This document shows, piece after piece, positions 3,099 to 23,817 of a DNA stretch of 61,396 nt. The notes beneath the pieces were generated by a model. It did not search any database and was not told where the DNA came from. It saw only the letters and a list, made by a program, of their open reading frames with translations. The first letter of the stretch is position 1. Each line of letters begins with the position of its first letter. The stretch comes from a virus (taxonomy: Duplodnaviria; Caudoviricetes). The stretch spans positions 1 through 61,396 of IMG/VR virus record IMGVR_UViG_3300031949_000037; one strand, given 5' to 3'. The position numbers and the translations under genes were made by a program.

Positions 3099-3648
3099 GG
3101 AGGGCCAGGACCACGAGGCGGCGGAGCCGCCGCTGGCCGAGGCTACCGAGCCGGCCCTAGACGTCCAGACGTCCGGCGATGGTGCTACGCCGGCGCCCGA
3201 GCCGGCCGGGGCCGAGCCTGAGGACAAGGCCACGCCAGCCCCGGAGCAAAACCTGACGCTGGAGGCCAGGGGCCGCGTAGTCGCGTGGGCCCCCAAGTCT
3301 ACCGAGACCGGGCCGGTCTGCCGCATTACCTTCGAGACCGCCGACATCAACGGTCGGGATCTCGAGCTCTTGTGGTCCGCCCAAGCGTTCCTCGCCGCCA
3401 TGACGCTAACCTTCGAGGGCCGGTCGCAGCGCATCCCCTTCCCCATGGCGGTCGGCCCTAGCCCGGCGTCAGAGGCCGCCGCCGAAGAGCCCTGCACGGA
3501 CCAGGAGCAGGCCGAGGCCGATGCCCTAGCCGGCGGCGCCATGGCAGAGGCGGAGGGCCAGGCGGAGGGCTTAGCCCAGGCCGAAGAGGCCGTGGGCGGG
3601 GCCGAGCCGCCATGGGCCGAAGGCGGCCAGCCCGAGGGCGGTGACTAA
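3037..3648 (+). CDS. Acidic hypothetical protein
   Basis: AAGGAG RBS; E/A/P-rich termini around a folded-looking core. Confidence 0.65.
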   Translation: MPRQYTRTRRKLALEEAAPPEEGQDHEAAEPPLAEATEPALDVQTSGDGATPAPEPAGAEPEDKATPAPEQNLTLEARGRVVAWAPKSTETGPVCRITFETADINGRDLELLWSAQAFLAAMTLTFEGRSQRIPFPMAVGPSPASEAAAEEPCTDQEQAEADALAGGAMAEAEGQAEGLAQAEEAVGGAEPPWAEGGQPEGGD

Positions 3649-3671
3649 CCCGCTTAAGCCCTTTCCCATCC

Positions 3672-3733
3672 TTGACACAGAGTGGCCCCTGGGTATGATC
3701 CAGGGGCCGCTACTTACTAGCCGCTACGGCTAG
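3672..3733 (+). promoter_or_regulatory. sigma70 promoter with downstream operator
   Basis: TTGACA-16 nt-TATGAT; perfect CTAGCCG-CTA-CGGCTAG at 3717-3733. Confidence 0.75.
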
Positions 3734-3737
3734 CGTT

Positions 3738-4355
3738 ATGTTATCTATCGAAAGGATGGGCGCCCCCGCCATGCCGAGCCGCCGCTTACCCCCCCGTGTC
3801 CTCGACCTCCAGGCTCCGCAGTACCCGCTACCGGATGCGCCCGCCCCGCGCCCGGCCTCGCGTAGGCGCGCGCGGCCGGGCGATCTCGCGGTGGTGGTGG
3901 GGGGTGGTGGTGGTGGTGATCTCTCTCGATCTACCGATCCATTAGTAGACCGAGACCCCACCACCACCACCGCGCACGGGCTCGCGCGCGCGGTGGCGCG
4001 CTACTTACGGGTGCGCCTGGGCACGGCCCTGGCGGCAGAGATGGTCGAAGAGTATGGGGCCATCCCGATACTCCGCGCCCTACCCCTCGTCATGAGACCG
4101 CATTGGGTAGAGGAGCCGGTTGCCCAGCTTACCTACGCGGAAATCAAGGCGTGGCGAGCGGCCGGTGCTAAGGGCCAGTTACGCCGGCCCGGCAGGGAGC
4201 GAATCCTGTGGGAGCCGGCACCTGGGCTACGGAGTCCTGGCGGCGTGCTACGGCGGAAACTCGAGGCTGGCCGGTTGACGGCCGCTAGCCGTAGCGGCTA
4301 TAGTGACCAGGCCGGCGGCGCTACGGAGCCCCGCCAGCAAGCGATAGGAGGCTAG
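3738..4355 (+). CDS. Hypothetical protein, possibly a replication-initiator-like remnant; start uncertain
   Basis: ORF after a promoter; DRDPTTTTAHGLARA resembles phage replisome-organizer linkers; internal inverted repeat. Confidence 0.4.
   Translation: MLSIERMGAPAMPSRRLPPRVLDLQAPQYPLPDAPAPRPASRRRARPGDLAVVVGGGGGGDLSRSTDPLVDRDPTTTTAHGLARAVARYLRVRLGTALAAEMVEEYGAIPILRALPLVMRPHWVEEPVAQLTYAEIKAWRAAGAKGQLRRPGRERILWEPAPGLRSPGGVLRRKLEAGRLTAASRSGYSDQAGGATEPRQQAIGG
4275..4304 (+). promoter_or_regulatory. sigma70 promoter with embedded operator
   Basis: TTGACG-18 nt-TATAGT with CTAGCCG-TAG-CGGCTA. Confidence 0.8.
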
Positions 4356-4357
4356 GC

Positions 4358-5662
4358 GTGCAACAGAGCGGTAGCATCATCCGGGGCCTGGCAACGGCAG
4401 ATCTCCACCTGGGCATCGACAACGTAGGTGGCCTAAACGCCTACGGCCTGCCGGCGCGGGTCGACGACTTCTTCAGCGCCTTCGACCAGATGATCGGCTT
4501 CGCCAGGGGAAGGCGAGGAGCTACCGGCGGCTTCGACGCCGAGCCGGTAGACCTCTTCATCATCGCCGGCGACCTGACCCGGCACCGTAATCCGCCCCAG
4601 CGGATCGTGGCGCCCTTCCTGTACCGGGTCCGCGCCATGGTCGACAAGGGCATTACCGTGGTCCTGGTCTGCGGGAACCACGATGGGCAATCGGGGCGCG
4701 GTCAGTACAACCTACTCGACGCGGCCGCCGAGGTGGGGGGTGCCTCAGCGGATGGTGGCCAGGTAATCATCTTTAACGAGCCCGCGTCTCTGACGGCCTC
4801 TACCCGGCATGGGAAGGTGCGGCTAGTGGGCATCCCCTGGCCCCGTGTAGGGGCCAGCGATGGGGCCCCCATGGCCGAGGTCCGCGACGCTGCCGACGCC
4901 GTTCTACGCGACAGAATAGGCCAGGCGGCTCTTCCCGAATCGCTCGACTACGCCGAGCCCGAGGTCATGATTGGCCACCTGGCCGTGGCCGGGGCCGACC
5001 GCGCCAGCGACCAGTGGATGACGCTAGGCTACGAGCCCCTGGTGCGGCCGGGCGACTTCCCTCCTACGCTCGACCTGGTCCTGCTAGGCCATTACCACAA
5101 GCCCAGCATCATTAGCCGGTCCGGCCCGCCGATCCTCTACTGCGGATCGCCCATTACCATCGACTTCGGCGAGGAAGGCCAGGAGAAGATGGCCTGGAGA
5201 TTTGCCCTTGACGGCTCCCGCCCGCGCGGCCAGCGCTGCGTAGAGCTAACCTCCATGCCCCTAGCCGGCCGCCCGTTCCGCACGATCGACCTAGACCTGG
5301 CCGACTTCATCGACCCGGTCGTGGTGACCGCGGCCGCGATCGAGGCGATCCACCAATCGGTCGGCGATGTGCTAGACGGTGCCGTCGTTAGGGTGCGGAT
5401 CAAGTGCCGCGCGGCGGCCCAGGCCGGGGCCCTTAAGCTGGGCGCTATCGACGCGGCTCTTCGAGAGGCCGGCGCCTGGTACGTAGCGGGAATCCATGTA
5501 GAGGCGCCCAGGGCCGAGCGCCGCTGGGGCGGCGACAGCCTGATGTCACGGCCGCCCGAGGAGCTGCTACGTGAATACCTCGAGCGGACCGAACCCGATC
5601 CCGACCGCCGGGCCCGCCTCTACGGGCTGGCCATGCAGCTAAAGGCAGAGGCCGAATGCTAA
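4358..5662 (+). CDS. sbcD: SbcD/Mre11-family nuclease
   Basis: Metallophosphoesterase motifs ADLHLG, IAGD, GNHD, LGHYH, YCGSP..DFGE. Confidence 0.93.
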   Translation: MQQSGSIIRGLATADLHLGIDNVGGLNAYGLPARVDDFFSAFDQMIGFARGRRGATGGFDAEPVDLFIIAGDLTRHRNPPQRIVAPFLYRVRAMVDKGITVVLVCGNHDGQSGRGQYNLLDAAAEVGGASADGGQVIIFNEPASLTASTRHGKVRLVGIPWPRVGASDGAPMAEVRDAADAVLRDRIGQAALPESLDYAEPEVMIGHLAVAGADRASDQWMTLGYEPLVRPGDFPPTLDLVLLGHYHKPSIISRSGPPILYCGSPITIDFGEEGQEKMAWRFALDGSRPRGQRCVELTSMPLAGRPFRTIDLDLADFIDPVVVTAAAIEAIHQSVGDVLDGAVVRVRIKCRAAAQAGALKLGAIDAALREAGAWYVAGIHVEAPRAERRWGGDSLMSRPPEELLREYLERTEPDPDRRARLYGLAMQLKAEAEC

Positions 5663-9642: not shown

Positions 9643-9912
9643 ATGGCAAGCCAGACGGCAGACCTGGCCACGGTAGTCGTCGAGGGGACGATGCGGGCAG
9701 GGGCCCGGTACGTGGCCGAGAAGCACCTGGCGGTAGACTACGCCGCCGTCACGGCCCGGATGCGCGACATCGTACGCGCCGAGTACGACGAGCTGGTGGC
9801 GACCCTGAAGGACGCCCTGGATGGCAACATGGGCGGCCCGATGTACCGCCAGATCATCAACACCTATTGCACGTCCTGGGGGATCAGGGCGGTAGACAAC
9901 AGGGGGAAATGA
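9643..9912 (+). CDS. Hypothetical protein
   Basis: Purine-rich RBS region; high-GC codon pattern. Confidence 0.65.
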   Translation: MASQTADLATVVVEGTMRAGARYVAEKHLAVDYAAVTARMRDIVRAEYDELVATLKDALDGNMGGPMYRQIINTYCTSWGIRAVDNRGK

Positions 9913-10145
9913 CGATGGACGCTCACCAAGTACACGATGCCCAGCAAGAGCTCGGGCAGGCCTACCGACAGCGCCGGCTCATAGCCCAGCTTCAGGCCAA
10001 GCGCGCCGAGGTGCTTAGGGCATGGGCGCGCCAAGCCGACTTCTCCGATGGGGCATGGCTCGATCCTAACCAGCCCCTCGAGCGGATGTGGCGCCTCACC
10101 TACGCTATCGACCGGGCCATCGTCCGGGCCGGCGGGGAGGTCTAG
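9909..10145 (+). CDS. Hypothetical protein
   Basis: ATGA overlap; N-terminus DAHQVHDAQQELGQAYR resembles DSTQLRQAQQLGRIYR of 9376. Confidence 0.55.
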   Translation: MTMDAHQVHDAQQELGQAYRQRRLIAQLQAKRAEVLRAWARQADFSDGAWLDPNQPLERMWRLTYAIDRAIVRAGGEV

Positions 10146-14935: not shown

Positions 14936-15838
14936 ATGCGCGATGGCCCGCCATGGGCGGTAGTGTCGCCGATCCTAGTGATCGGCGACTTCTGCCAGGA
15001 TCGCTTCATTCGGGCAGCGGCTTCCCGCTTATCGCGGGAGTGGCCGCTGCCCGTCTTTTGCTTTGGGGGCCAGGAGATCGCCATGGGCGGCGCCGGCAAC
15101 GTGGCCCGGCAGCTACGGGCCTATGGCGCGCCCGTGATCGAGGTCGAGCTAGCTAGGTGTGTCAAGGTACGAATCCTGGCCGCGATGGCCGGGATGCCTG
15201 AGACCGAGGTCCTGCGCCTCGATTACCCGTGGCGGATACGGCGCTGGCGCCGGGGCAGCCCTACGCCCTTCATCCCCGAGGCGCACCCGCCCCTGGGCGG
15301 GGTCGTCTACGCCGACTATCGCGGCCTCACCGGCCCGCCGCCAGAGGTCGGCGCCCTGGTCCGCTCGCTGCGCTGCCCGAAGGTGGTCGACGTGCGGCGT
15401 GTGCCCTACGGCTGGGATGCCTTCGACGTGCTGAAGATAAACCAGGCCGACGGCCTGCTCGCTGAGTCTTGCCGGCAAGACTACGAGCGCCTAGGCCGCA
15501 AGGCCCTAATGGGGGCCGTAGTGACGCGCGGCTCCGCTGGCCATGTCGTCGTGACTGGCGCGGGCCCGGTAGACGTGCCGGCGATGGAGCTACCGGGCCC
15601 CGTAGTCAACGTGAGCGGCGCCGGCGACGTCTTCACCGCTACCCTCGTAGTCGCCATGGCGAGCGCCTACGGGCGCTGCGGCTCCTACTCGGCGGCCGAC
15701 ATCGAGCCGGCGGCCCGACTGGCTGGCCTAGCCGCCGCTTTACGGGTCCGCAAGCCCGGCTATAATGTGGCCGTCGCGCCCGAGGAGCTAGCGCCATGGT
15801 TGGATTCTGGACCCCCGAAGAGCCCGCCGACTTACTAG
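14936..15838 (+). CDS. PfkB-family sugar kinase, HldE/RfaE domain I-like
   Basis: ILVIGDFCQDRF..SRLSREWPLPV..GGAGNVA; VVTRG; NVSGAGDVF. Confidence 0.8.
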   Translation: MRDGPPWAVVSPILVIGDFCQDRFIRAAASRLSREWPLPVFCFGGQEIAMGGAGNVARQLRAYGAPVIEVELARCVKVRILAAMAGMPETEVLRLDYPWRIRRWRRGSPTPFIPEAHPPLGGVVYADYRGLTGPPPEVGALVRSLRCPKVVDVRRVPYGWDAFDVLKINQADGLLAESCRQDYERLGRKALMGAVVTRGSAGHVVVTGAGPVDVPAMELPGPVVNVSGAGDVFTATLVVAMASAYGRCGSYSAADIEPAARLAGLAAALRVRKPGYNVAVAPEELAPWLDSGPPKSPPTY

Positions 15839-16281
15839 AACGGTGCCAGCTAGCCCGTGAGGGCACGGGCCGGATCGTAGGCCTGGTCAACGGCTGCTTT
15901 GACCTGCTACATCCCGGCCATGTCCTCTTCCTCCAGGAGGCCGCCCAACACTGCGATAGCCTGGTCGTGGCCATCGACACCGACGCCCAGGTCCGCCATG
16001 CTAAGGCCGATGGGCGCCCCGTACGCTCCTGGTACGAGCGCGCCTTCCTGGTCAAGGCCCTTGCCTGCGTCTTCGGCGTTACCCCCATTGACCCCGTGCA
16101 GCCCCTAACGGCCGTGCTGGAGGCCCTTCGCCCCGACCTCTATATGTACCGGCCGGGCTCGCCGCCTACCGAGCTGGAGGTAGCGCGTGGCCTGGGCCTG
16201 GGCATGCTGGAGCTAGGGCGCCATGGGGCTTGGAGCACGACAGAGGAGATCATCCGATGCGAAAGAAGGCGACTCCGGTAG
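15796..16281 (+). CDS. Cytidylyltransferase-fold nucleotidyltransferase, HldE/RfaE domain II-like
   Basis: NGCFDLLHPGH, LVVAIDTD..K..RP...ER, C-terminal STTEEI. Confidence 0.85.
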   Translation: MVGFWTPEEPADLLERCQLAREGTGRIVGLVNGCFDLLHPGHVLFLQEAAQHCDSLVVAIDTDAQVRHAKADGRPVRSWYERAFLVKALACVFGVTPIDPVQPLTAVLEALRPDLYMYRPGSPPTELEVARGLGLGMLELGRHGAWSTTEEIIRCERRRLR

Positions 16282-16823
16282 CCCGCGACCCGCTGCAAAT
16301 CCGCTACGCGGACCCGCGCACCCTGAAGCTGAACGAGGACAACCCCAGGTGGATGCCCGACGATGAAATGGCCTCCCTGAAGCGGTCGCTCCAGACCTGG
16401 GGCTTCGTCGATCCCATCATCGTACGGCGCGAGAACGGCGAGGTGATCGCTGGCCACCAGCGGATCGCGGCCGCCATCGCAGTAGGGCTGGCCCAGGTGC
16501 CAGTGATAGACCTAGACGTGACCGCCCTCGACGCCGCTCTGCTTAACCAGGCCCTTAACCGGATCATGGGCCGCTGGGATGAAACCAAGCTGCCGCTCGT
16601 GCAGGAGCAGCTACGGCTCGAGGGCGCCGACCTGAGCCTGACCGGCTTCACGTCGGCCGAGCTCGACCTGTACGCCGGCACCGTCGCCGGCGCCCCTGTC
16701 CACTCGGCCGCCCGTAAGAACGACAACTTTGCGGCCTTCAACCGTGGTACCGGCGAGTACACGCGCCTAGAGCTAGGCGAGATCCAGATTGCCCTACCGG
16801 CCCATGTCTACCATCGGGGCTAA
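16257..16823 (+). CDS. ParB/Srx N-terminal domain protein
   Basis: NPR..LKRSLQTWGFVDPIIV..VIAGHQR. Confidence 0.85.
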   Translation: MRKKATPVARDPLQIRYADPRTLKLNEDNPRWMPDDEMASLKRSLQTWGFVDPIIVRRENGEVIAGHQRIAAAIAVGLAQVPVIDLDVTALDAALLNQALNRIMGRWDETKLPLVQEQLRLEGADLSLTGFTSAELDLYAGTVAGAPVHSAARKNDNFAAFNRGTGEYTRLELGEIQIALPAHVYHRG

Positions 16824-18231
16824 CGAGCGGACGTCCGCCGCCTACCGCGCCGACTACGTCGCCTCCATCGTCGGGTACTGGCTAAGCTACGAGGCCGAAC
16901 AGGCCGGCGTGCGCCTGGTGGACCCGCGGCGGGCCGACATCGTCCTGCTCGTGCATGCGGGCGCCATCAACTTCGCCCCGGCCGCCCGCCGGGAGCTCCG
17001 CCGCCATCGCATCGAGCCCGACGCTGGCAAGCGGGCCGGGCCCTACATCATCGCCGGCGGCGCCATCGGCTCTGCGCCCTTCACGTGCATGGAGGTGGCC
17101 AACGCCGTAGCGCTCGGCGAGGGCTACGCCTTCGTCCGGGAGCTCTTCCGGCTGGCCGGCACCGGCGCCAGCATAGCCAAGATAAGACAGTGGATAATTG
17201 CCTACCCCCATGCCCTAGAGCGGTCGCAGCTCGCCGGCTATCGCCGGGACCACGCCCGCCCCTGGCTCCTGGCGCCTGGTAGCGCCGGCCCTATAGCGGA
17301 GCCCGACGCGCGCATCGACTGGTCGGTCCCGCCCATCCGGTCCGACGACAAGGTCGTGCAGGTCATGGCCGGGAAGGGCTGCCCGAACAAGTGCAAGTTC
17401 TGCGCTACGTCGTGGGAGCAGCGGTACCAGTACCGCCAGGACGGCGCCTACGCCGTGGGACTCCTACGCCAGCTCAAGGCGAAGGGCGAACGGGTCCGAC
17501 TGGTCTCCAACGATCCGGCTGCCCTACCCTGGTTTCCTGACATCGACGTCAAGCTGGATGCCCAGAGCTTTACCTTCCGGGCGCTCAAATCGCCGGCGGC
17601 CCGCGCCGCCCTCATGCGCACCCGCCCGTCTAGCTGCCGGATCGGGGTTGAGGGACTCTCCTACCGGGAGCGCGTCGCGTACGGCAAGCCCATCCGCAAC
17701 GATGCCCTGCTGGAGCTCCTGGCGGGCGTCCACGCTCACAAGCTCGACAGCCACCTCTTCTTGATCACGTGCGCGCCGTTCGAGACCGAGGCCGACTGGC
17801 AGGAGTACACCGACTTCTACTATCGGCTGGCGCGCGCCATCCCTCGCGGGGTCTGTAGGGTCAAGTACACCACCTTTACCCCCGCGCCGCCGGCTCCCTT
17901 AGCCCGCTTCGTGCCGGGCGGAGACCTCCGCCGGCGGCCGGCCCTCTTCAGGGATTGGGTGGCGCGCCACAGCGCCGGGCGGCATATGTTCTCCATCTGG
18001 CCGCGCGGCCCTAAGACGGTAGCCGAGCACACATCGGACCTACTCTCGGCCCCCCCCGAATACGTCAGGCAGTGGGTGAACGGTCACGGTACGATGGACC
18101 TGGCGCCGACCGTCGAGGACGCCGCCCGCCTGCCGTGGGAAGTGGTCAAGTGGCCCTGGTCGCCAGAGTCACGGTGGAGGGCCGCGGCCGCGTACGCCCG
18201 CGCGATGGAGCTTCCGGGGCCGGCAGAGTGA
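16804..18231 (+). CDS. Radical SAM protein
   Basis: KGCPNKCKFC (CxxxCxxC); RIGVEG; ETEAD. Confidence 0.85.
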   Translation: MSTIGANERTSAAYRADYVASIVGYWLSYEAEQAGVRLVDPRRADIVLLVHAGAINFAPAARRELRRHRIEPDAGKRAGPYIIAGGAIGSAPFTCMEVANAVALGEGYAFVRELFRLAGTGASIAKIRQWIIAYPHALERSQLAGYRRDHARPWLLAPGSAGPIAEPDARIDWSVPPIRSDDKVVQVMAGKGCPNKCKFCATSWEQRYQYRQDGAYAVGLLRQLKAKGERVRLVSNDPAALPWFPDIDVKLDAQSFTFRALKSPAARAALMRTRPSSCRIGVEGLSYRERVAYGKPIRNDALLELLAGVHAHKLDSHLFLITCAPFETEADWQEYTDFYYRLARAIPRGVCRVKYTTFTPAPPAPLARFVPGGDLRRRPALFRDWVARHSAGRHMFSIWPRGPKTVAEHTSDLLSAPPEYVRQWVNGHGTMDLAPTVEDAARLPWEVVKWPWSPESRWRAAAAYARAMELPGPAE

Positions 18232-18238
18232 GTCTTGC

Positions 18239-20293
18239 ATGGCGCGGAAGTCTACCCTTACCCGTCTACCCGCGCACCTCATCGCCGAGCGCCGCCAGCA
18301 CGTCCGGCGCCTAGACCTAATCGGCTCTAGCGTCCCTACCATCGTCGCTACTCTCCAGCACCAGGCGCCCCAACTGATCGAAGCCCAGGCCGACCCTGCA
18401 CAGACGGTCCGTGACGACCTCGACGCCATCCGGGGCCTAGCGGTAGCGGAGCTAACCGACCTGGGCTCCGCCGCGCTGGGGGCCCGCGCCGTCGTCGACT
18501 ACATTGGGCTTAAGCGCTTGATCCTTAACAGCGCGATTGCCATGGCGGAGTCGCCGGCCGTCAGACCCAGGGATAGGGCCAAGTTCCTCCAGGTGGCCAA
18601 CGTGGCGGCCGACGACATCGCTCGGGCCAGAGGCGTACCCGTAGACCGGCCGGCCTTCAACATCAACTTCCAGCAGCAGCTACTAGCCCTGGGCCTACCG
18701 CCGGCCATGGTCGACATGCTGACGGCTGGCCCCGCCCGCGCCGGGCCGGCGCCTCTCCTTCTGCCCGCCGGCACCGGTGGCGGCCTCGTCGACGCGCTGA
18801 CCTTCGCCGTTTCGCCCGACTTCTGCGACCTCGGCTCCATCATGGAGTCCTACCCGATGCAGGAGCGGGTCCTGCGAGAGTTCATGTCGCCCCGGTCGCC
18901 CTACCGCGTCCTGGTCCTGGTCTGCGGCATGCGGTCCGGCAAGGGCGTGGTGGGCAGCATCGTGGCCTGGTACGCCGCCTATCAGCTCCTCTCCCTAGCC
19001 GACCCCCAACACTACTTCGGCCTGGCGCCCGGCCAGGAAATCCAGATCGTGACGATGGCCACATCGCAGGACCAGGCGAAGCACAACGTCTTCAAACACA
19101 TCGTCGACCGCCTGGAGAACGGGGGCCCATGGTTCCAGGCCCTACGCGACCAGGCCGAGGTCGTGAGCCTCGAGATCCGCCTACCCAAGAACATCCTGAT
19201 CCGCTGCGGCCACTCCAAGGCGTCTACCCAGGTGGGCTCTACCTCCTACGTGGTGATCCTCGACGAGCTGGCCCGGATGAAGGACACCGAAGGGCGCGAT
19301 AACGCCGACGAGGTCTACGACAAGATGGGTGCGACCACGGCCACCTTCCTCGAGGAGGGCAAGGTCCTGGTCTTGACGTCGCCCGAATGGGAAGGCGATA
19401 AGAGCATGCGGCTACTGGACGAGGCCACGGCCGACGACGATAGCGGCCGGCCCCTACATCCCGACATGCTGGGCATCCAGCTCGCTACGTGGGAAGCCAA
19501 CCTTAACTTGACCGAGGACGGGCTGGCCGAGGCCTTCCACCGCGACGCTAACCCCATGGCCTTCTGGCGTGACTTCGGGGCCCGCCCGCCCCTGGCCGCT
19601 GAGGGCTACTACCCCGATCCCGGCCGCTGGGACCGGCAGGTCGACCCCGACCTGCGGCACCCCTACGACGAGAACGATCAGCTATACGACTGGTGGGTGC
19701 CTTGCTGCGATGGCCGGCGCTTCGTCCATGTCGACCTAGGCGCCAAGCGCGACGCCGCCGGCCTGGCGATGGCCCATGCGCCCGTGCCGGGCTGCCCCTA
19801 CTACAAGACGGTCCTCCGGGATGGCCAGATAGTCGAAAACCCGCGCGCCCGCGCGGTCGTGACCGACGTTATCCACCGCCTCGTGCCCGGCCGCAAGCGG
19901 GAGGTGAAGGGCGAGATCTCGTTCGAGGCCGTGCGCCAGATGATCCGCAACTGGCAGGCGCGGGGCTTCAACGTCAAGGGCGGCCTGGTCTCCTACGACG
20001 GCTGGCAGAGCCTCGACAGCCGGCAAATCTTCAAGCGCGAGGGATACAAGGTCGCGGAGTTCTCCCTAGACCGCAACACCGAGGGCCATGATACCCTCCA
20101 GGAGCTTCTAAACACGGACCGCCTCGCCTACTACGGGCACCCCGTCTTGCTGAACGAGGCTAAGCACCTGATGCTCCTGCACGGCAAGAAGGTGGATCAC
20201 CCCAAGGGCGGCTCTAAGGACGTAGCGGACGCCGTCGCCGGCGCCGTCTATCATGCCCTGAAGCGGGGCGGCCGAGTTAGGTTCGTGGGCTAG
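18239..20293 (+). CDS. terL: Terminase large subunit with ~180-aa N-terminal extension
   Basis: GMRSGK Walker A, VILDE Walker B, HVDLG and DHPKGGSKDVADA nuclease motifs. Confidence 0.92.
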   Translation: MARKSTLTRLPAHLIAERRQHVRRLDLIGSSVPTIVATLQHQAPQLIEAQADPAQTVRDDLDAIRGLAVAELTDLGSAALGARAVVDYIGLKRLILNSAIAMAESPAVRPRDRAKFLQVANVAADDIARARGVPVDRPAFNINFQQQLLALGLPPAMVDMLTAGPARAGPAPLLLPAGTGGGLVDALTFAVSPDFCDLGSIMESYPMQERVLREFMSPRSPYRVLVLVCGMRSGKGVVGSIVAWYAAYQLLSLADPQHYFGLAPGQEIQIVTMATSQDQAKHNVFKHIVDRLENGGPWFQALRDQAEVVSLEIRLPKNILIRCGHSKASTQVGSTSYVVILDELARMKDTEGRDNADEVYDKMGATTATFLEEGKVLVLTSPEWEGDKSMRLLDEATADDDSGRPLHPDMLGIQLATWEANLNLTEDGLAEAFHRDANPMAFWRDFGARPPLAAEGYYPDPGRWDRQVDPDLRHPYDENDQLYDWWVPCCDGRRFVHVDLGAKRDAAGLAMAHAPVPGCPYYKTVLRDGQIVENPRARAVVTDVIHRLVPGRKREVKGEISFEAVRQMIRNWQARGFNVKGGLVSYDGWQSLDSRQIFKREGYKVAEFSLDRNTEGHDTLQELLNTDRLAYYGHPVLLNEAKHLMLLHGKKVDHPKGGSKDVADAVAGAVYHALKRGGRVRFVG

Positions 20294-20296
20294 GGC

Positions 20297-20326
20297 TTGA
20301 CCGACGCTAGCCGCTACGGCTATTAT
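20297..20326 (+). promoter_or_regulatory. sigma70 promoter with embedded operator, upstream of the hexamer array and RAMP gene
   Basis: TTGACC-18 nt-TATTAT with CTAGCCG-CTA-CGGCTA. Confidence 0.85.
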
Positions 20327-20430
20327 GGCGGAGCCGCGCCAGCGCCGGGGGCTGGCGGGCTAGCGAAAGGGGCCGCCCCATGACCATCAGTTCTCTAGCG
20401 CTGGCCATCCCGCCGGCCTAGTGCTCGCAT

Positions 20431-21241
20431 CGACCTCGGCAACGCCTAGGGCGATGCTACCGTCGACGTTCCAGTCTACGCCTAGGCCGCCATCGGCTTC
20501 GCCGGCGCTAGAGCCATCGCCCGCGGCAACGGCTTCGCCGTCGCTGTCGACCACGACGCGGCCGGCGTCTATGCCGACGCCGGCGCCATCGCTGTCGCTA
20601 ACGCCGCCGCCCACGTCCCGGTCTTCGCCATCGGTAACGCCGCCGGCACTGCTGGAGGCGTCGCCTACGCTCTCGGCCTTGTTGCCGGCCGCGTCAACGC
20701 TGCCGCCATCGCTGCCGGCGCCGACCTCGCTGACGCCATCGCCTTCGCTCTCGGCCTCGCTACCGCTCACGCCGCTGCTGGCGCTGCCGATCCCGCTACT
20801 GCTCCCGGCGGAGCCGTCGCCATCGGCCCCGTCACGCCGTAGACCCGGACTGCGCCTATGCCCTCGTTACCGTCGCCGTCCGCTGCTGACGCCTTCGCCC
20901 CCGGCACCGCCAACGGCACCGGCTTCGGCCCTGCCAGCGTTACCGTCGCCGCCCCGCCACACTGCTCCCGCCTTAGTCTGCGCCGGCCACTTCGTCACCG
21001 TCCGCGGCTGCCCCTTCGCCTTCGTCAACGCCATCGCTGACGCTGCCGGCCTAGCTGCCGACCTCGTCGACGCCCTCGCTACTGCCGAAGCCTGCGCCAA
21101 TGCCCGCGCCAACGCCCTCGCCACCGCCGAAGCTGGCGCCGACGGCTTCGCCGTCGGCCTCGCCAAAGCCGCCCCGCCGGCCCCGGCAACGGCCTCGCTC
21201 CCGCCATCGTCAACGCCCCGCCATCGTCAACGCCCCGCCAT
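20431..21241 (+). repeat. Degenerate hexamer array (C)G-N-Y-N-N, ~130 units; candidate non-coding guide RNA array
   Basis: 57 consecutive in-register units at 20488-20829 all have G at position 2 and a pyrimidine at position 4; positions 5-6 vary; several register slips are not multiples of 3. Confidence 0.85.
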
Positions 21242-21280
21242 AGTGTCCGCCGGCCATGCGGCCCGGCAGAGAGGAAAGCC

Positions 21281-21922
21281 ATGCCGATCAGGATCACGGT
21301 CCGCGCCCACTTCGAGAGGGGCTACATAGCCGACCCCTACTGGCCCGAGCGGGAGAAGGTGATCAACATCCTGAAGGAGTCGGGGGCCAACCGGGTCCGG
21401 TCTCAGGACCGCCGGGCCAAGGCCCTAGACGACTACCTGAGGGCCCGCAGCATGACGCTTGAGGATCTGCACAGCCTGGAGGCGCTTGCAGAACGGCCGT
21501 TCTATACGCTCGACGGGCGTATCATCATCCCGGCCCATCAGGTCCATGGCGCCCTAGCCAATGCTGCGGCGCTCTGCTCTTCTTCCATACGGATCGCCCG
21601 CCAGGAGCAGATCAGGACCGTGCTCCAGAGCGGCGATTGGCTCACGGACAAGGGCAAGGAAGACGGCACGTGGGAGCGGTTCGTGGTGGTCAAGAGCGGG
21701 ACCGGTAAGACGCTGACCAACCAGCGGGCCCTACGCGCTAACCCCTACATCGAGGACTTCGACGCCACGGGTACGCTGACGACGCTCATGGAGAAGGAGC
21801 ACCTGAAGAAGCTCGAGGACTTCGTTAAGTGGACGGGCCAGGAGATCGGGCTGGGCGCCTCCCGCAAGATGGGCTGGGGCCGGTTCGACGTTATCGGCTT
21901 CGAGCTCGAGGCCGCTGCATGA
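21281..21922 (+). CDS. Stand-alone RAMP-superfamily (Cas7/Csm3-like) protein
   Basis: N-terminal beta strand, IIIPAHQVHGAL (cf. IPGSSLKGAL), C-terminal Gly-rich loop GLGASRKMGWGRF. Confidence 0.75.
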   Translation: MPIRITVRAHFERGYIADPYWPEREKVINILKESGANRVRSQDRRAKALDDYLRARSMTLEDLHSLEALAERPFYTLDGRIIIPAHQVHGALANAAALCSSSIRIARQEQIRTVLQSGDWLTDKGKEDGTWERFVVVKSGTGKTLTNQRALRANPYIEDFDATGTLTTLMEKEHLKKLEDFVKWTGQEIGLGASRKMGWGRFDVIGFELEAAA

Positions 21923-22341
21923 GCGAGGATGCACCGGGAGCCGTGAACCTACGCGATCTGCCGCCTACGCCGGAGCACGACAAGTTCCTCAAGGTTCGTA
22001 GTGGGCCGCTCGGTGAACACCTCAGTGGGTTCTACGATTATCTGGCCGAGCTGAGCATTCACCTGATGGTGTGGGCTGAGAGTGACGAAGAGGCTGATTG
22101 CGATGGTGGCGTGCTGAACGCGATCTGCCTGGGGGACAGCCGGTGCCCAGCCTGCCACGGTTCGGGCAGAGTTACCCGGCATTTCGAGGGCTACGTATCC
22201 GCCGCCAAGACGCCCGCAGAGTTGATCGCAGGTTACCTCGGTATCGACCCCAAGGCATTCAATGACGAGACCGAGGCAGTCTACCAAGCCGTCAGCAGAC
22301 AGGCCCGCGAGGCCGTGCGGGAGGCTGAGGGGGAAGCATGA
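21919..22341 (+). CDS. Hypothetical protein with CxxCxGxG motif
   Basis: ATGA overlap with the RAMP gene; CPACHGSG. Confidence 0.65.
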   Translation: MSEDAPGAVNLRDLPPTPEHDKFLKVRSGPLGEHLSGFYDYLAELSIHLMVWAESDEEADCDGGVLNAICLGDSRCPACHGSGRVTRHFEGYVSAAKTPAELIAGYLGIDPKAFNDETEAVYQAVSRQAREAVREAEGEA

Positions 22342-22664
22342 GCCCCACGGTCCGGGCCCGGCTCGAGTGGCACCACTTCTACGCCCATGTAGACCTGCCC
22401 AAGGGGGAGCTGCCGCCTAGCATCGTGCTGCCGCTGGAGACCATCATGGGCGAGCCGCAAGTCGACGAAGCGGGCTTCATCATCGAAGTCGACAGAGAGG
22501 CCGAGCCGCTGCTAGCGCCAGACGAGGGGTGGGAGTTCCGCCTACAACCGACTTGCGACTGTACGCTACGCTACGTAGCGGTAGAGCCCCCCTGGCAGGC
22601 CCAGATCAGGAACGCGATCCGCCGGAACGGCTACCGCGCGAAGGAGGCGCCATGCCCGCCCTAA
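22338..22664 (+). CDS. Hypothetical protein
   Basis: ATGA overlap. Confidence 0.55.
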   Translation: MSPTVRARLEWHHFYAHVDLPKGELPPSIVLPLETIMGEPQVDEAGFIIEVDREAEPLLAPDEGWEFRLQPTCDCTLRYVAVEPPWQAQIRNAIRRNGYRAKEAPCPP

Positions 22665-23209
22665 GGTCTACGCTGCTCCTGGCGCTGGTCGTGGCCGCCG
22701 TAGGCGTAGCGGTAGCCACGGCCGGCGCCGGCGCCCAGGGGCCGCCACCTAGGCCCCTGAGGATATGCCGATGGTACCCGCACCTGCGGGTCTGCCGGCC
22801 CCCTACGCTCTCGCCGTCGCCCACCTCTACGCCATCGGCGACGCCCTCGGTAACGCTGACGCCAACGATGCCGCCCACGTCAACGTCCTCGCCGCCGCCG
22901 CCGCCAACGTTGACGACCTCGCCATCGTCGACGGCGCCGCCTACGTCGACGCCAACGCCGCAGCCTACGCCAACGCCGGGGCCGGCCGGCCCCCTACAGG
23001 GAGACCTCAACGGCGACTGCGTAGTCGACCTGGTCGACTGGCAGATGATCTACCCCCGCTATGGGTGCGTCTTCGGGCTCCTCTGCTATCGCCCCATGTA
23101 CGACCTGGAGCCGCCCGGCGGCGACGAGGACATCGACATATGCGACCTCCAATACGTCTACGGCCGCCTGGGCAGCACGTGCGATCACCCGATCCCGGCC
23201 GGTCAGTAG
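22652..23209 (+). CDS. Exported protein: signal peptide, P/T linker, dockerin-like Ca-binding domain
   Basis: AAGGAGG RBS; GDLNGDCVVDLVD..DLEPPGGDEDIDICDL. Confidence 0.8.
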   Translation: MPALRSTLLLALVVAAVGVAVATAGAGAQGPPPRPLRICRWYPHLRVCRPPTLSPSPTSTPSATPSVTLTPTMPPTSTSSPPPPPTLTTSPSSTAPPTSTPTPQPTPTPGPAGPLQGDLNGDCVVDLVDWQMIYPRYGCVFGLLCYRPMYDLEPPGGDEDIDICDLQYVYGRLGSTCDHPIPAGQ

Positions 23210-23211
23210 TC

Positions 23212-23241
23212 TTGACAGGCCCTAGCCGAGGCGGCTAGTCT
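23212..23241 (+). promoter_or_regulatory. sigma70 promoter with embedded operator
   Basis: TTGACA-18 nt-TAGTCT with CTAGCCG-AGG-CGGCTAG. Confidence 0.85.
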
Positions 23242-23367
23242 ACACGCATGGCGGCCGGCGGCTACCCGACAGCAACCGGGTTGGGGGCGGGGAGGGCATC
23301 GCACCCTATGGCCAACCGGCCGCCGCTCTTTATCCCCGCTACCTAGCCCCGCCGGGGGCGACCTATC

Positions 23368-23817
23368 ATGCCGAACCATAGCCGGCTAGAGATTCTGGAG
23401 GGCGCGGCCGAGCTCCGAGACAGGGTAGCGGGCATCGTGCTAGCCTACCGTGGGAAGGGTGCCCGCTTGGCGGCCATCGCTACCGCTCTGGGTTACGAGA
23501 CCTGGGGCCGGGGGGATCGGGGGATGGCGCCGGCGGACCGCGAGCGCATCATGCGAATCCTTAAGGGCCTGGAGAGGGACCACCTGCTCTACCGGGACGC
23601 CAAGGGCCTATACCGGCCCTTCGATTGGCGCGAGTACCTGGCGGCTCTTAAGGGGCGCCACGACCACTACCGTCTACGGGCCCGCTTCCTCTACCGGGCC
23701 GCCCAGCGGTCGGAGCGGCTTGCCGCCCGCGCCTGGCGGGCCGTCATGGCCGAGCTAGAGCGCATAGCCGGGGAGCACCCCGAGGTCGACATCGAGAAGC
23801 TGAGGGACGAGACATGA
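23368..23817 (+). CDS. Putative winged-helix DNA-binding protein
   Basis: LAAIATALG..RILKGLERDHLLYRD..GLY pattern. Confidence 0.55.
   Translation: MPNHSRLEILEGAAELRDRVAGIVLAYRGKGARLAAIATALGYETWGRGDRGMAPADRERIMRILKGLERDHLLYRDAKGLYRPFDWREYLAALKGRHDHYRLRARFLYRAAQRSERLAARAWRAVMAELERIAGEHPEVDIEKLRDET

Follow-up and report, generated by a model that had tools for sequence, protein, structure and literature searches.

A six-base repeat array beside a Cas7-type RAMP gene in a phage genome, a probable guide-RNA array of a VIPR-like system

The tract at positions 20431-21241 of the viral record IMGVR_UViG_3300031949_000037 is built of six-base units and lies between the gene for the large terminase (TerL) and a 213-codon open reading frame (ORF). 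This IMG/VR record, referred to here as the window since all 61,396 bp of it were analysed, is rated 100% complete, has 67.7% G+C and carries every long ORF on the plus strand. We conclude that the tract is probably a non-coding guide-RNA array of a system like VIPR (Viral Interference Programmable Repeat), with the Cas7-type RAMP protein of 213 amino acids encoded at 21281-21922 as its partner. The grammar of the units, the association with a co-oriented RAMP gene, the predicted RAMP fold, the hypervariability of two bases in each unit (NN) against a fixed scaffold and the lack of a preserved reading frame are shown by the analysis. Systems of this kind are known; what is new relative to the 2026 preprints is the six-base unit, its free middle base, the very long and punctuated arrays and a distinct RAMP family. 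The original prediction, made from the letters of the window, had proposed a nucleotide-level guide grammar without linking it to the downstream gene. The core of that proposal stood, and it is extended here by the RAMP partner, by arrays at 23 of 26 other loci, by the hypervariability of NN and by the likeness to VIPR.

The 2026 preprints present VIPR as a pentanucleotide code that preceded CRISPR. Vipr is described there as a minimal phage-encoded RAMP, and the vrRNAs as molecules of about 100 nt in which a run of 9-16 YNNGG pentanucleotides is followed by a structured 3' tail; NNNGG, YNNNG and NNNNG are given as alternative units (10.64898/2026.04.26.720920). The NN bases pair with double-stranded DNA with one base skipped, usually the wobble base, and the targets are rival phages and satellites (10.64898/2026.04.26.720920). 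In the Vipr filament each repeat is bound by one protomer, with GGY flipped out and gripped by H17, D177, R138, W178 and R179 (10.64898/2026.04.26.720927).

The regularity of the tract is clearest at 20488-20829, where 342 nt form 57 hexamers. Position 2 is G in 57/57 units and position 4 is a pyrimidine in 57/57 (C in 38, T in 19), exactly as had been noticed, and position 1 is C in 47 of the 57. Positions 5-6 use 14 of the 16 dinucleotides and are 46.5% A/T, in agreement with the earlier hand count of about 46%. The spectral power of this stretch is 6.7 at period 6, 26.7 at period 3 and 0.6 at period 5. When calculated over 300 nt at a time, period-6 power rises to 4-6.5 across 20501-20901, compared to a median of 0.6 and a 95th percentile of 1.9 for the window.

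The register of the units changes near 20485 (+3), at 20834 (a 5-nt unit), at 20883 (+1), at 20955-20962, at 21171-21183, and at 21218 and 21235 (5-nt CGCCC). These slips had been listed in the original prediction and were recovered both by a phase track and by register tracking; 5-6 of the shifts break the reading frame. The segments between them are given in Table 1. In segment 5, units with A at position 1 return every 6-7 units, and a 42-nt period is found at 21070-21165. The array ends in the 17-nt tandem duplication noticed earlier, which Tandem Repeats Finder (TRF) reported as 2.5 copies, 100% identical, over 21200-21241, each made of two 6-nt units and the 5-nt CGCCC. Three of the slips have a 5-nt CGCCC followed by CGCCA in common. 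The 23-nt motif at 21234-21256 may be a module end or boundary signal; it showed no significant fold.

The slips might have been sequencing errors within a single translated frame, as was allowed for at the outset. This was countered at the level of assembly, since a second assembly of the probable source run (a Logan contig of 9,412 nt at depth 25) agreed with 20000-21700 throughout (0 differences, 0 gaps). Assembler artefacts are thus excluded as the source of the slips, although the Logan assembly probably comes from the source sample itself and is not an independent sample. Short stretches from a different soil study match 20122-20272 and 20317-20467 at about 97% identity. No other copy was found when viral_contigs was scanned for exact words from two parts of the window.

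The 213-aa protein has neither a Pfam nor a PHROG family. A search of 1.84 billion representatives gave 144 homologous clusters at E up to 0.001, and 0/144 carry a name or Pfam domain. The Pfam RAMP model scored below threshold (E 0.023). An AlphaFold2 model built on 51 sequences had a pLDDT of 97.3 and a pTM of 0.88. Its structural matches are CRISPR RAMPs, both in the best 50 from VIA-align and in all those listed by Foldseek. The VIA-align matches are led by Cmr4 (Z 13.0, root-mean-square deviation 3.8, 155 residues aligned), followed by Csm3 (12.9 and 12.5), type VII Cas7 (12.5) and Cas7-11. The structure libraries compared contained no Vipr chain, so a ranking of the fold against Vipr lies outside this comparison. 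Near the C-terminus, the protein has GLGASRKMGWGRF, which we take to be the RAMP glycine-rich loop.

When the profile of the RAMP family was compared with PDB sequences, it matched type VII Cas7 (E 0.031), Cmr6 (E 0.037) and the SUSP1 Vipr protein 36pp_D (E 0.063). In the weak alignment with the last of these, D177 and W178 of SUSP1, which contact the two Gs, are replaced by Ala and Ser, and R179, which contacts the pyrimidine, corresponds to the invariant R195. These replacements, together with the invariant arginine, would fit a GNY scaffold with a free middle base, as far as this weak alignment can be trusted. No acidic residue is invariant in the family, which makes RNA cleavage of the Csm3 type unlikely. 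The family members come almost only from metagenomes, plus a few metagenome-assembled genomes (MAGs) of Tepidiformaceae, Acidimicrobiia and Planctomycetia. A tblastn search of 50,697 phage records found no homologue in isolated phages at E up to 10.

The arrays recur beside the gene for this protein. The comparison set consisted of the 26 other loci that encode RAMP homologues (24 viral, 2 MAG), and in 23 of them a segment 10 or more units long lies no further than 600 nt from the homologue. Of the exceptions, L020 has none, L031 has arrays of 91 and 75 units further upstream, and L034, a partial match, has a 46-unit array about 1.9 kb off. L020 (6,633 nt) is the sole viral locus that has a RAMP homologue and no nearby G..Y hexamer array, and it may use another repeat grammar. 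Unit density is 43.1/kb beside the RAMP gene, 3.7/kb beyond 1.5 kb and 1.05/kb in the rest of the window. The arrays end 16-92 nt before the RAMP start codon or start 23-95 nt past its stop, and in 64/70 segments the pyrimidine bias of position 1 lies on the strand of the RAMP gene. An all-against-all BLASTP of plus-strand ORFs identified RAMP as the only ORF family common to all 25 loci examined.

The relatives L001-L004, found via TerL, have no array directly after TerL. In L003, a 530-nt array with the grammar of the window, slips included, lies about 2 kb beyond TerL and directly upstream of an 83%-identical RAMP homologue. Our early favourite for the tract, a private decaying low-complexity insert, was dropped once this array emerged. 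L003 also has a 70-codon ORF with two or three hydrophobic helices at 9841-10050, the stop of which falls immediately before the array. This ORF shares its frame with the open frame that runs through array and RAMP gene; its counterpart in the window is only the 13-codon ORF at 20380-20421.

Pooling 2,054 units gave C 0.74/T 0.19 at position 1, G 0.97 at position 2 and C 0.88/T 0.10 at position 4, values that the unit detector partly imposes for G at position 2 and Y at position 4. Base composition is mixed at position 3 and close to uniform at positions 5-6, so that the unit reads Y-G-N-C/Y-N-N. The prevailing base at position 3 differs by locus, being C in the window, A in L027 and G in L015, L030 and L031. 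Segments have a median length of 11 units (interquartile range 8-20, n=110, with a detection floor of 7) and reach a maximum of 107 in L030.

The segments of different loci are separated in different ways. L030 has guides of 6-12 units parted in register by marker units, 11 times; in L027, most junctions are a 5-nt unit; and each junction of L024 is a 7-nt unit that moves the register by +1 (Table 1). Since such punctuation recurs in these three loci and in the window, the slips look like one of several kinds of boundary mark rather than random damage. The suggestion that the slips delimit individual guides was partly upheld. In its favour, the target match of a guide in L009, described below, ends one unit before a junction, and the junctions of L027 and L024 are recurrent 5-nt and 7-nt units. 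On the other side, the guides of L030 are parted in register, and units 40-49 of the window, a candidate guide, lie inside an unbroken 58-unit register.

The comparison of strains proposed for turnover of NN could be made with L010 and L012, and it gave the turnover expected. The RAMP genes of these two phages are 96.7% identical and their three arrays 77-87% identical. Substitutions in the arrays numbered 8/125 at position 1, 3/127 at position 2, 20/124 at position 3, 3/123 at position 4, 36/121 at position 5 and 52/121 at position 6. Positions 5-6 thus vary most and positions 2 and 4 hardly at all, a pattern that is synonymous in no reading frame. A block of about 10 units common to the window (20969-21030) and L009 behaves differently: position 5 differs at 0/10 units, position 6 at 2/10 and position 3 at 5/9. 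This would be expected if NN carries a message and position 3 is free.

Possible targets were searched for under the rule that the NN dinucleotides pair and one base is skipped, which gives a target period of 3; shuffles of unit order served as control. When the wobble base is left out, units 27-36 of a 49-unit segment in L009 match the TerL motif 'GHDTLQELIN', in frame and on the coding strand. The guide scores 18/20 against G001, a complete sibling phage without a RAMP gene, 18/20 against L004, 17/20 against the TerL gene of the window (position 20084) and 14/20 against its own TerL, which reads 'GYDTLLELLN'. Against G001, 0/200 unit-order shuffles reached 18. The match stops one unit short of the register junction. 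When L003 7846-7875 is set against 20084-20113 of the window, TerL of the L003 type has H>Y, Q>L and I>L relative to three relatives. All three lie in a ten-codon stretch of a motif that is conserved apart from them, exactly at the site to which a guide in the array of this phage type corresponds.

Across 66 clean segments, target period 3 gave 40 matches of at least 17/20, compared to 11, 18, 16 and 29 for periods 2, 4, 5 and 6; the range in 12 shuffles was 9-29. Open frames of 150 codons or more contain 18 of the 40, and 8 shuffles gave 3-14 such matches. In the window, the NN of units 40-49 of segment 2 score 17/20 against the window's own radical-SAM gene (16936) and 17/20 against the homologous gene of the relative G002, and the flanking units score 0-1. 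Taken together, these results are suggestive of a wobble-skipping rule and of warfare between sibling phages, going by base matches. The frequencies of NN were also compared with those of codon positions 1-2. The Pearson correlation was 0.60 for the window (119 units) and 0.15 for 2,100 pooled units, no better than uniform, and it is uninformative because a coding tract would give the same result.

A single promoter-like site, at 20297-20326, was found in 19800-23600, and none on the minus strand there. Judged by its sequence, this promoter probably drives the array and the RAMP gene. It contains, at 20308-20322, a copy of the palindrome TAGCCG-N3-CGGCTA, which occurs 8 times in the window compared to 0.06 expected, and also after TerL in the relatives L001 and L003. 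This palindrome probably serves the phage as a promoter or operator of its own, and some of the abundant CTAG in the window (266 occurrences) may be due to it. The leader between promoter and array showed no unusual RNA structure (z -0.18). Folding of the array RNA was no better than that of shuffles (z +1.18; 19/20 shuffles folded at least as well), and Rfam gave no match for it at E up to 1.

By analogy with published VIPR, the following mechanism can be proposed. The fixed scaffold would be the G of position 2 and the pyrimidines of positions 4 and 1, and positions 5-6 would carry the information. The promoter at 20297-20326 would drive joint transcription of the array and the RAMP gene. 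Protomers of the RAMP may then polymerise along the RNA, one per unit, gripping the fixed bases and presenting NN to a target of which every third base is skipped, so that NN would read codon positions 1-2 of a gene. Such pairing could silence genes of competing related phages. The 5-nt and 7-nt register-shifting units, together with the in-register markers, probably split the transcript into guides of about 10 units. In its fullest form, which we offer tentatively and as possible rather than probable, this would be an undescribed VIPR-like type with a six-base protomer code, maybe between VIPR and class 1 CRISPR. Its guides would not be separate tailed RNAs of about 100 nt but would be strung in precursors of hundreds of bases, off-register 5-nt and 7-nt units and marker units would break the filament into guides of about 10 units, and these would silence the conserved terminase and radical-SAM genes of sibling phages, the carrier's own copies having escape substitutions.

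Several results weigh against a VIPR-like guide array. The similarity of the RAMP family to bona fide Vipr is marginal and no better than that to type VII Cas7. The TerL match is one guide, its three matched targets are mutually homologous, and it came from about 30 guide-by-genome tests. The 66 segments give 3 matches of at least 18/20, no more than shuffles can give (0-5). For the window's own guides, no match exceeded shuffles in the window, in 257 kb of loci or in two whole relatives, at target periods 2-6, and the match of units 40-49 is a lead only because 17/20 is common in shuffles. The hexamer detector is not specific, because the G..Y signal is also found in two real Pro/Thr/Ser (P/T/S) linkers of this phage, at 2143-2326 (ORF 1454-2422) and 22807-22993 (ORF 22529-23209). 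The unit is GNY-NN-Y of 6 nt and not the 5-nt unit of VIPR, and no run of at least 4 YNNGG units was found near the RAMP gene in the 26 loci. Segments reach 58 units in the window and 107 in L030, compared to 9-16 repeats. Folding against shuffles found no structured tail at the array ends, unlike the 3' tail of VIPR, and no accessory vap-like gene was seen as a conserved neighbour by BLASTP in 25 loci; a vap gene is typical of VIPR though not universal.

The alternative that survives best, though we consider it unlikely, is that the array RNA binds the RAMP protein without guiding it. As the 5' leader of the RAMP mRNA it could serve autoregulation, or it could act as a scaffold, as a storage filament or as a decoy for RAMPs of the host or of a rival. 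This would suit the place of the array between the promoter and the RAMP start codon in the window, and the way arrays abut the gene elsewhere, by the distances given above. Decoy or redirecting vrRNAs are also described in a preprint (10.64898/2026.10.15.759431). A pure scaffold, however, needs no diverse NN, and NN is near uniform and hypervariable between near-identical phages. In the block shared with L009, NN is kept while position 3 drifts, and the candidate in-frame TerL match comes with a mismatch to the carrier itself.

Less likely still is translation of the tract as the 302-aa ORF 20421-21329. Its product would resemble a linker, disordered and rich in Pro/Ser/Thr, with much Ala in the C-terminal part. 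No other frame that has a start codon stays open throughout, the two real P/T/S linkers of this phage stand in the same relative frame, and the GTG of the ORF overlaps the stop of the 13-codon ORF, which has a plausible ribosome site. Yet the frame is open by construction, because NYN and NCG codons cannot be stops, and its character changes at each slip, from Pro/Ser to Arg to Ala-x readings, as had been noticed. The protein has no homologues, is absent from the protein collection searched and overlaps the RAMP gene by 48 nt. The GGC, GAC or GTC cores of relatives would give quite different 'proteins'. The third-position G (position 2 of the unit) is invariant and the other third position varies, and the array adjoins the RAMP gene in 23/26 loci. 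Pooled over junctions, the frame is kept at 7/28 register shifts, and the GNY frame of the nearest upstream segment is the RAMP gene frame in 5/17 loci, about one third. We judge the 302-codon ORF to be a by-product of the repeat grammar and no gene.

Slimmer again is the chance of a decayed, frameshifted Ala/Gly-x repeat gene, or of the antisense 127-aa ORF as a real acidic protein. Read as codons, the array is (GNY)(NNC), an Ala/Gly-x repeat; the next frame is Pro/Ser/Thr-rich and the opposite strand Gly/Asp/Ser-rich. Codon usage resembles that of a gene both in the GNY frame (0.4-0.9 bits/codon) and on the antisense strand, the antisense ORF is called by public gene callers, and phage Bobby gp79 reads similar DNA as Ala-rich repeats in a real ORF. 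The codon score cannot pick a frame, however, because the real linkers, which share the hexamer signal as X-(NCG) codon pairs, give the identical misleading profile, negative in their true frame and positive in the GNY and antisense frames. The GNY-first frame has no ATG, GTG or TTG in 20486-20836 and is interrupted by TAG at 20447 and 20483, as predicted, and by a third TAG at 20837. Its peptide had no homologues, and four readings of the tract drew no match from Pfam or PHROG. The would-be third positions (1 and 4) are the most conserved and the first and second (5 and 6) the most variable, and a pseudogene would not recur beside the same gene in 23/26 loci. The protein cluster of the antisense ORF holds only this phage's own copies, and we judge the ORF to be an artefact of the self-complementary GNC pattern.

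The DNA resembling the array in Mycobacterium phage Bobby gene 79 (L008, 1072-1878) is the only such DNA from an isolated phage; it is an Ala-rich AAxAA repeat inside a real 269-aa ORF, with alanines coded by GCC and GCT only, and it adjoins an integrase.

Least probable of all is a DNA-level element, either a packaging or binding site beside the terminase gene or the variable region of a diversity-generating retroelement (DGR). Although the tract directly follows TerL and its variable triplets are NNY and A-rich like DGR variable repeats, the arrays of other loci follow the RAMP gene and not the terminase, a period of 6 bp differs from that of the DNA helix, RAMPs bind RNA, and the DGR reading of the NNY triplets falls because the phage has no reverse transcriptase (no PF00078 in the complete 61,396-bp record, with hits in control genomes; a template repeat was not separately searched).

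The coordinates of all these features are collected in Table 1.

Table 1. Features of the window around the array, with array dialects of three other loci (positions there are those of the locus)
Feature	Position	Strand	Remarks
Cytidylyltransferase-like gene	15796-16281	+	upstream of TerL
Radical-SAM gene	16789-18231	+	PF04055 just above threshold; upstream of TerL; conserved in relatives
Large terminase gene (TerL, 684 aa)	18239-20293	+	PHROG terminase families
Sigma-70-like promoter TTGACC-18-TATTAT	20297-20326	+	consensus match 10/12; shuffles average 0.3
Palindrome TAGCCG-N3-CGGCTA, 15 nt each	3718, 4286, 6136, 8985, 13259, 20308, 23223, 24277		within promoter-like TTGAC...TAnnAT sites
Leader	20327-20430	+	between promoter and array; 13-codon ORF from ATG 20380 to TAG 20421
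Array segment 1	20431-20490	+	10 hexamer units, register phase 2
Array segment 2	20488-20835	+	58 units, single register (the 57 of the original prediction plus one)
Candidate 10-unit guide, units 40-49 of segment 2	20728-20787	+	NN against radical-SAM motif DIVLLVHAGA, in frame, 1-nt skip
Array segment 3	20835-20882	+	8 units, register shift -1
Array segment 4	20884-20955	+	12 units, register back by +1
Array segment 5	20963-21196	+	35 conforming units, register +1
Terminal units	21178-21241	+	17-nt tandem duplication inside
23-nt end motif	21234-21256	+	second copy 20967-20989 at 87% identity, 267 nt apart (repeat family D5)
302-codon ORF	20421-21329	+	over array; overlaps RAMP gene start; Pro/Ser, Arg, Ala-x readings by turns
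127-codon antisense ORF	20387-20770	-	called protein by public gene callers
Cas7-like (Vipr-like) RAMP protein, 213 aa	21281-21922	+	predicted fold
L030 dialect	3659-4312		TGGC-NN units; 6-12-unit guides parted in register by TGAC-NN then AGCT, 11 times
L027 dialect	3629-4844		CGAC-NN units, 1.2 kb; most junctions between 5-21-unit segments are 5-nt YGCAN
L024 dialect	3725-4003		CGCC-NN units; each junction 7-nt (CGTTCGG or similar), register +1 each time

Several RAMP homologues in public sets have N-terminal 'extensions' of alternating A-x, V-x or Arg-rich low complexity, which suggest that gene callers ran through upstream arrays. Both these extensions and the call of the antisense ORF are likely mis-annotations. 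Array DNA called protein was seen in the proteins P0001, P0002, P0013, P0018, P0021, P0063, P0074 and P0088.

Two observations concern neighbouring genes. The ORF at 22529-23209 (likely start 22652), which contains one of the two P/T/S linkers, has a hydrophobic N-terminus and a Cys-rich C-terminal part with a dockerin-like DLNGDCVVDLVD motif, and a homologue of it lies directly after the terminase in L001 (9147-9734). The terminase of L001 (5824-8823, 999 codons) has an intein-like insert (CFTGDT...VHNS) just after its KGG motif, and the terminase of the window lacks this insert.

If the tract is a guide array, the principle of repeat-coded guides would be wider than published, extending to a six-base unit in which the middle base of the triplet is free and to arrays ten times longer. 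Nature would also have provided, in the hexanucleotide family, an experiment on the joint variation of protomer footprint and code. The family would suggest, too, that soil phages with high-GC hosts fight one another through the silencing of terminase genes. On the practical side, public annotation reports an antisense 'protein' over the array and N-terminal 'extensions' of RAMP homologues in relatives.

One look-alike in sequence is the P/T/S linker of high-GC organisms, which shares the C-G-N-Y-N-N hexamer signal and the codon-score profile. Linkers, however, are about 30 units long, in frame and between folded domains, whereas the array lacks such domains on its flanks, changes register and accompanies the RAMP gene from locus to locus. 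TIGR-Tas, as far as the available text of a language-model survey describes it, is likewise a tandem array of fixed and variable segments beside an effector gene, but with an 18-nt period and a different effector (10.64898/2026.10.21.760802). The same text gives period 5 for VIPR arrays and 7, 8, 10, 18 and 60-79 nt for other arrays, and a text search of it found no mention of a six-base period (10.64898/2026.10.21.760802). A literature search for 'VIPR' with 'hexanucleotide' returned unrelated papers only; the supplements of the VIPR preprints lie outside that search and might show such arrays.

The closest likeness is to VIPR. Here, too, a single small RAMP of about 200 aa is encoded by a phage outside a CRISPR context, and short tandem repeats occupy intergenic DNA on either side of its gene. 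A fixed triplet alternates with a hypervariable NN; the triplet is GGY in VIPR and GNY here, and exactly GGC in L015, L030 and L031. A candidate target, too, lies in coding sequence, matched with the wobble base left out. A difference from published VIPR is that the hosts here are probably high-GC soil bacteria. The published census drew on NCBI NR and contigs of at least 20 kb (10.64898/2026.04.26.720920), and the present RAMP family may have escaped it because the family is almost absent from NCBI.

The other relationship is with the backbone of class 1 CRISPR. TRF and a repeat finder gave only periods of 12-42 nt, which follow from the hexamer grammar, and no repeat-spacer array. No further cas genes were seen: there is no second conserved family in 25 loci and none appeared in Pfam and PHROG scans of the neighbours, with cas models not run on every ORF. 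Nevertheless, Cas7 proteins (Csm3, Cmr4 and type VII Cas7) are the top fold matches of the 213-aa protein. The Cas7 footprint on crRNA is given as 6 nt per subunit (10.64898/2026.04.26.720920), which equals the repeat length here. Since Cas7 proteins also cover six bases each, the family is of direct relevance to the route that has been proposed from VIPR to CRISPR. Unlike in class 1 CRISPR, the periodicity here is written in the RNA sequence itself.

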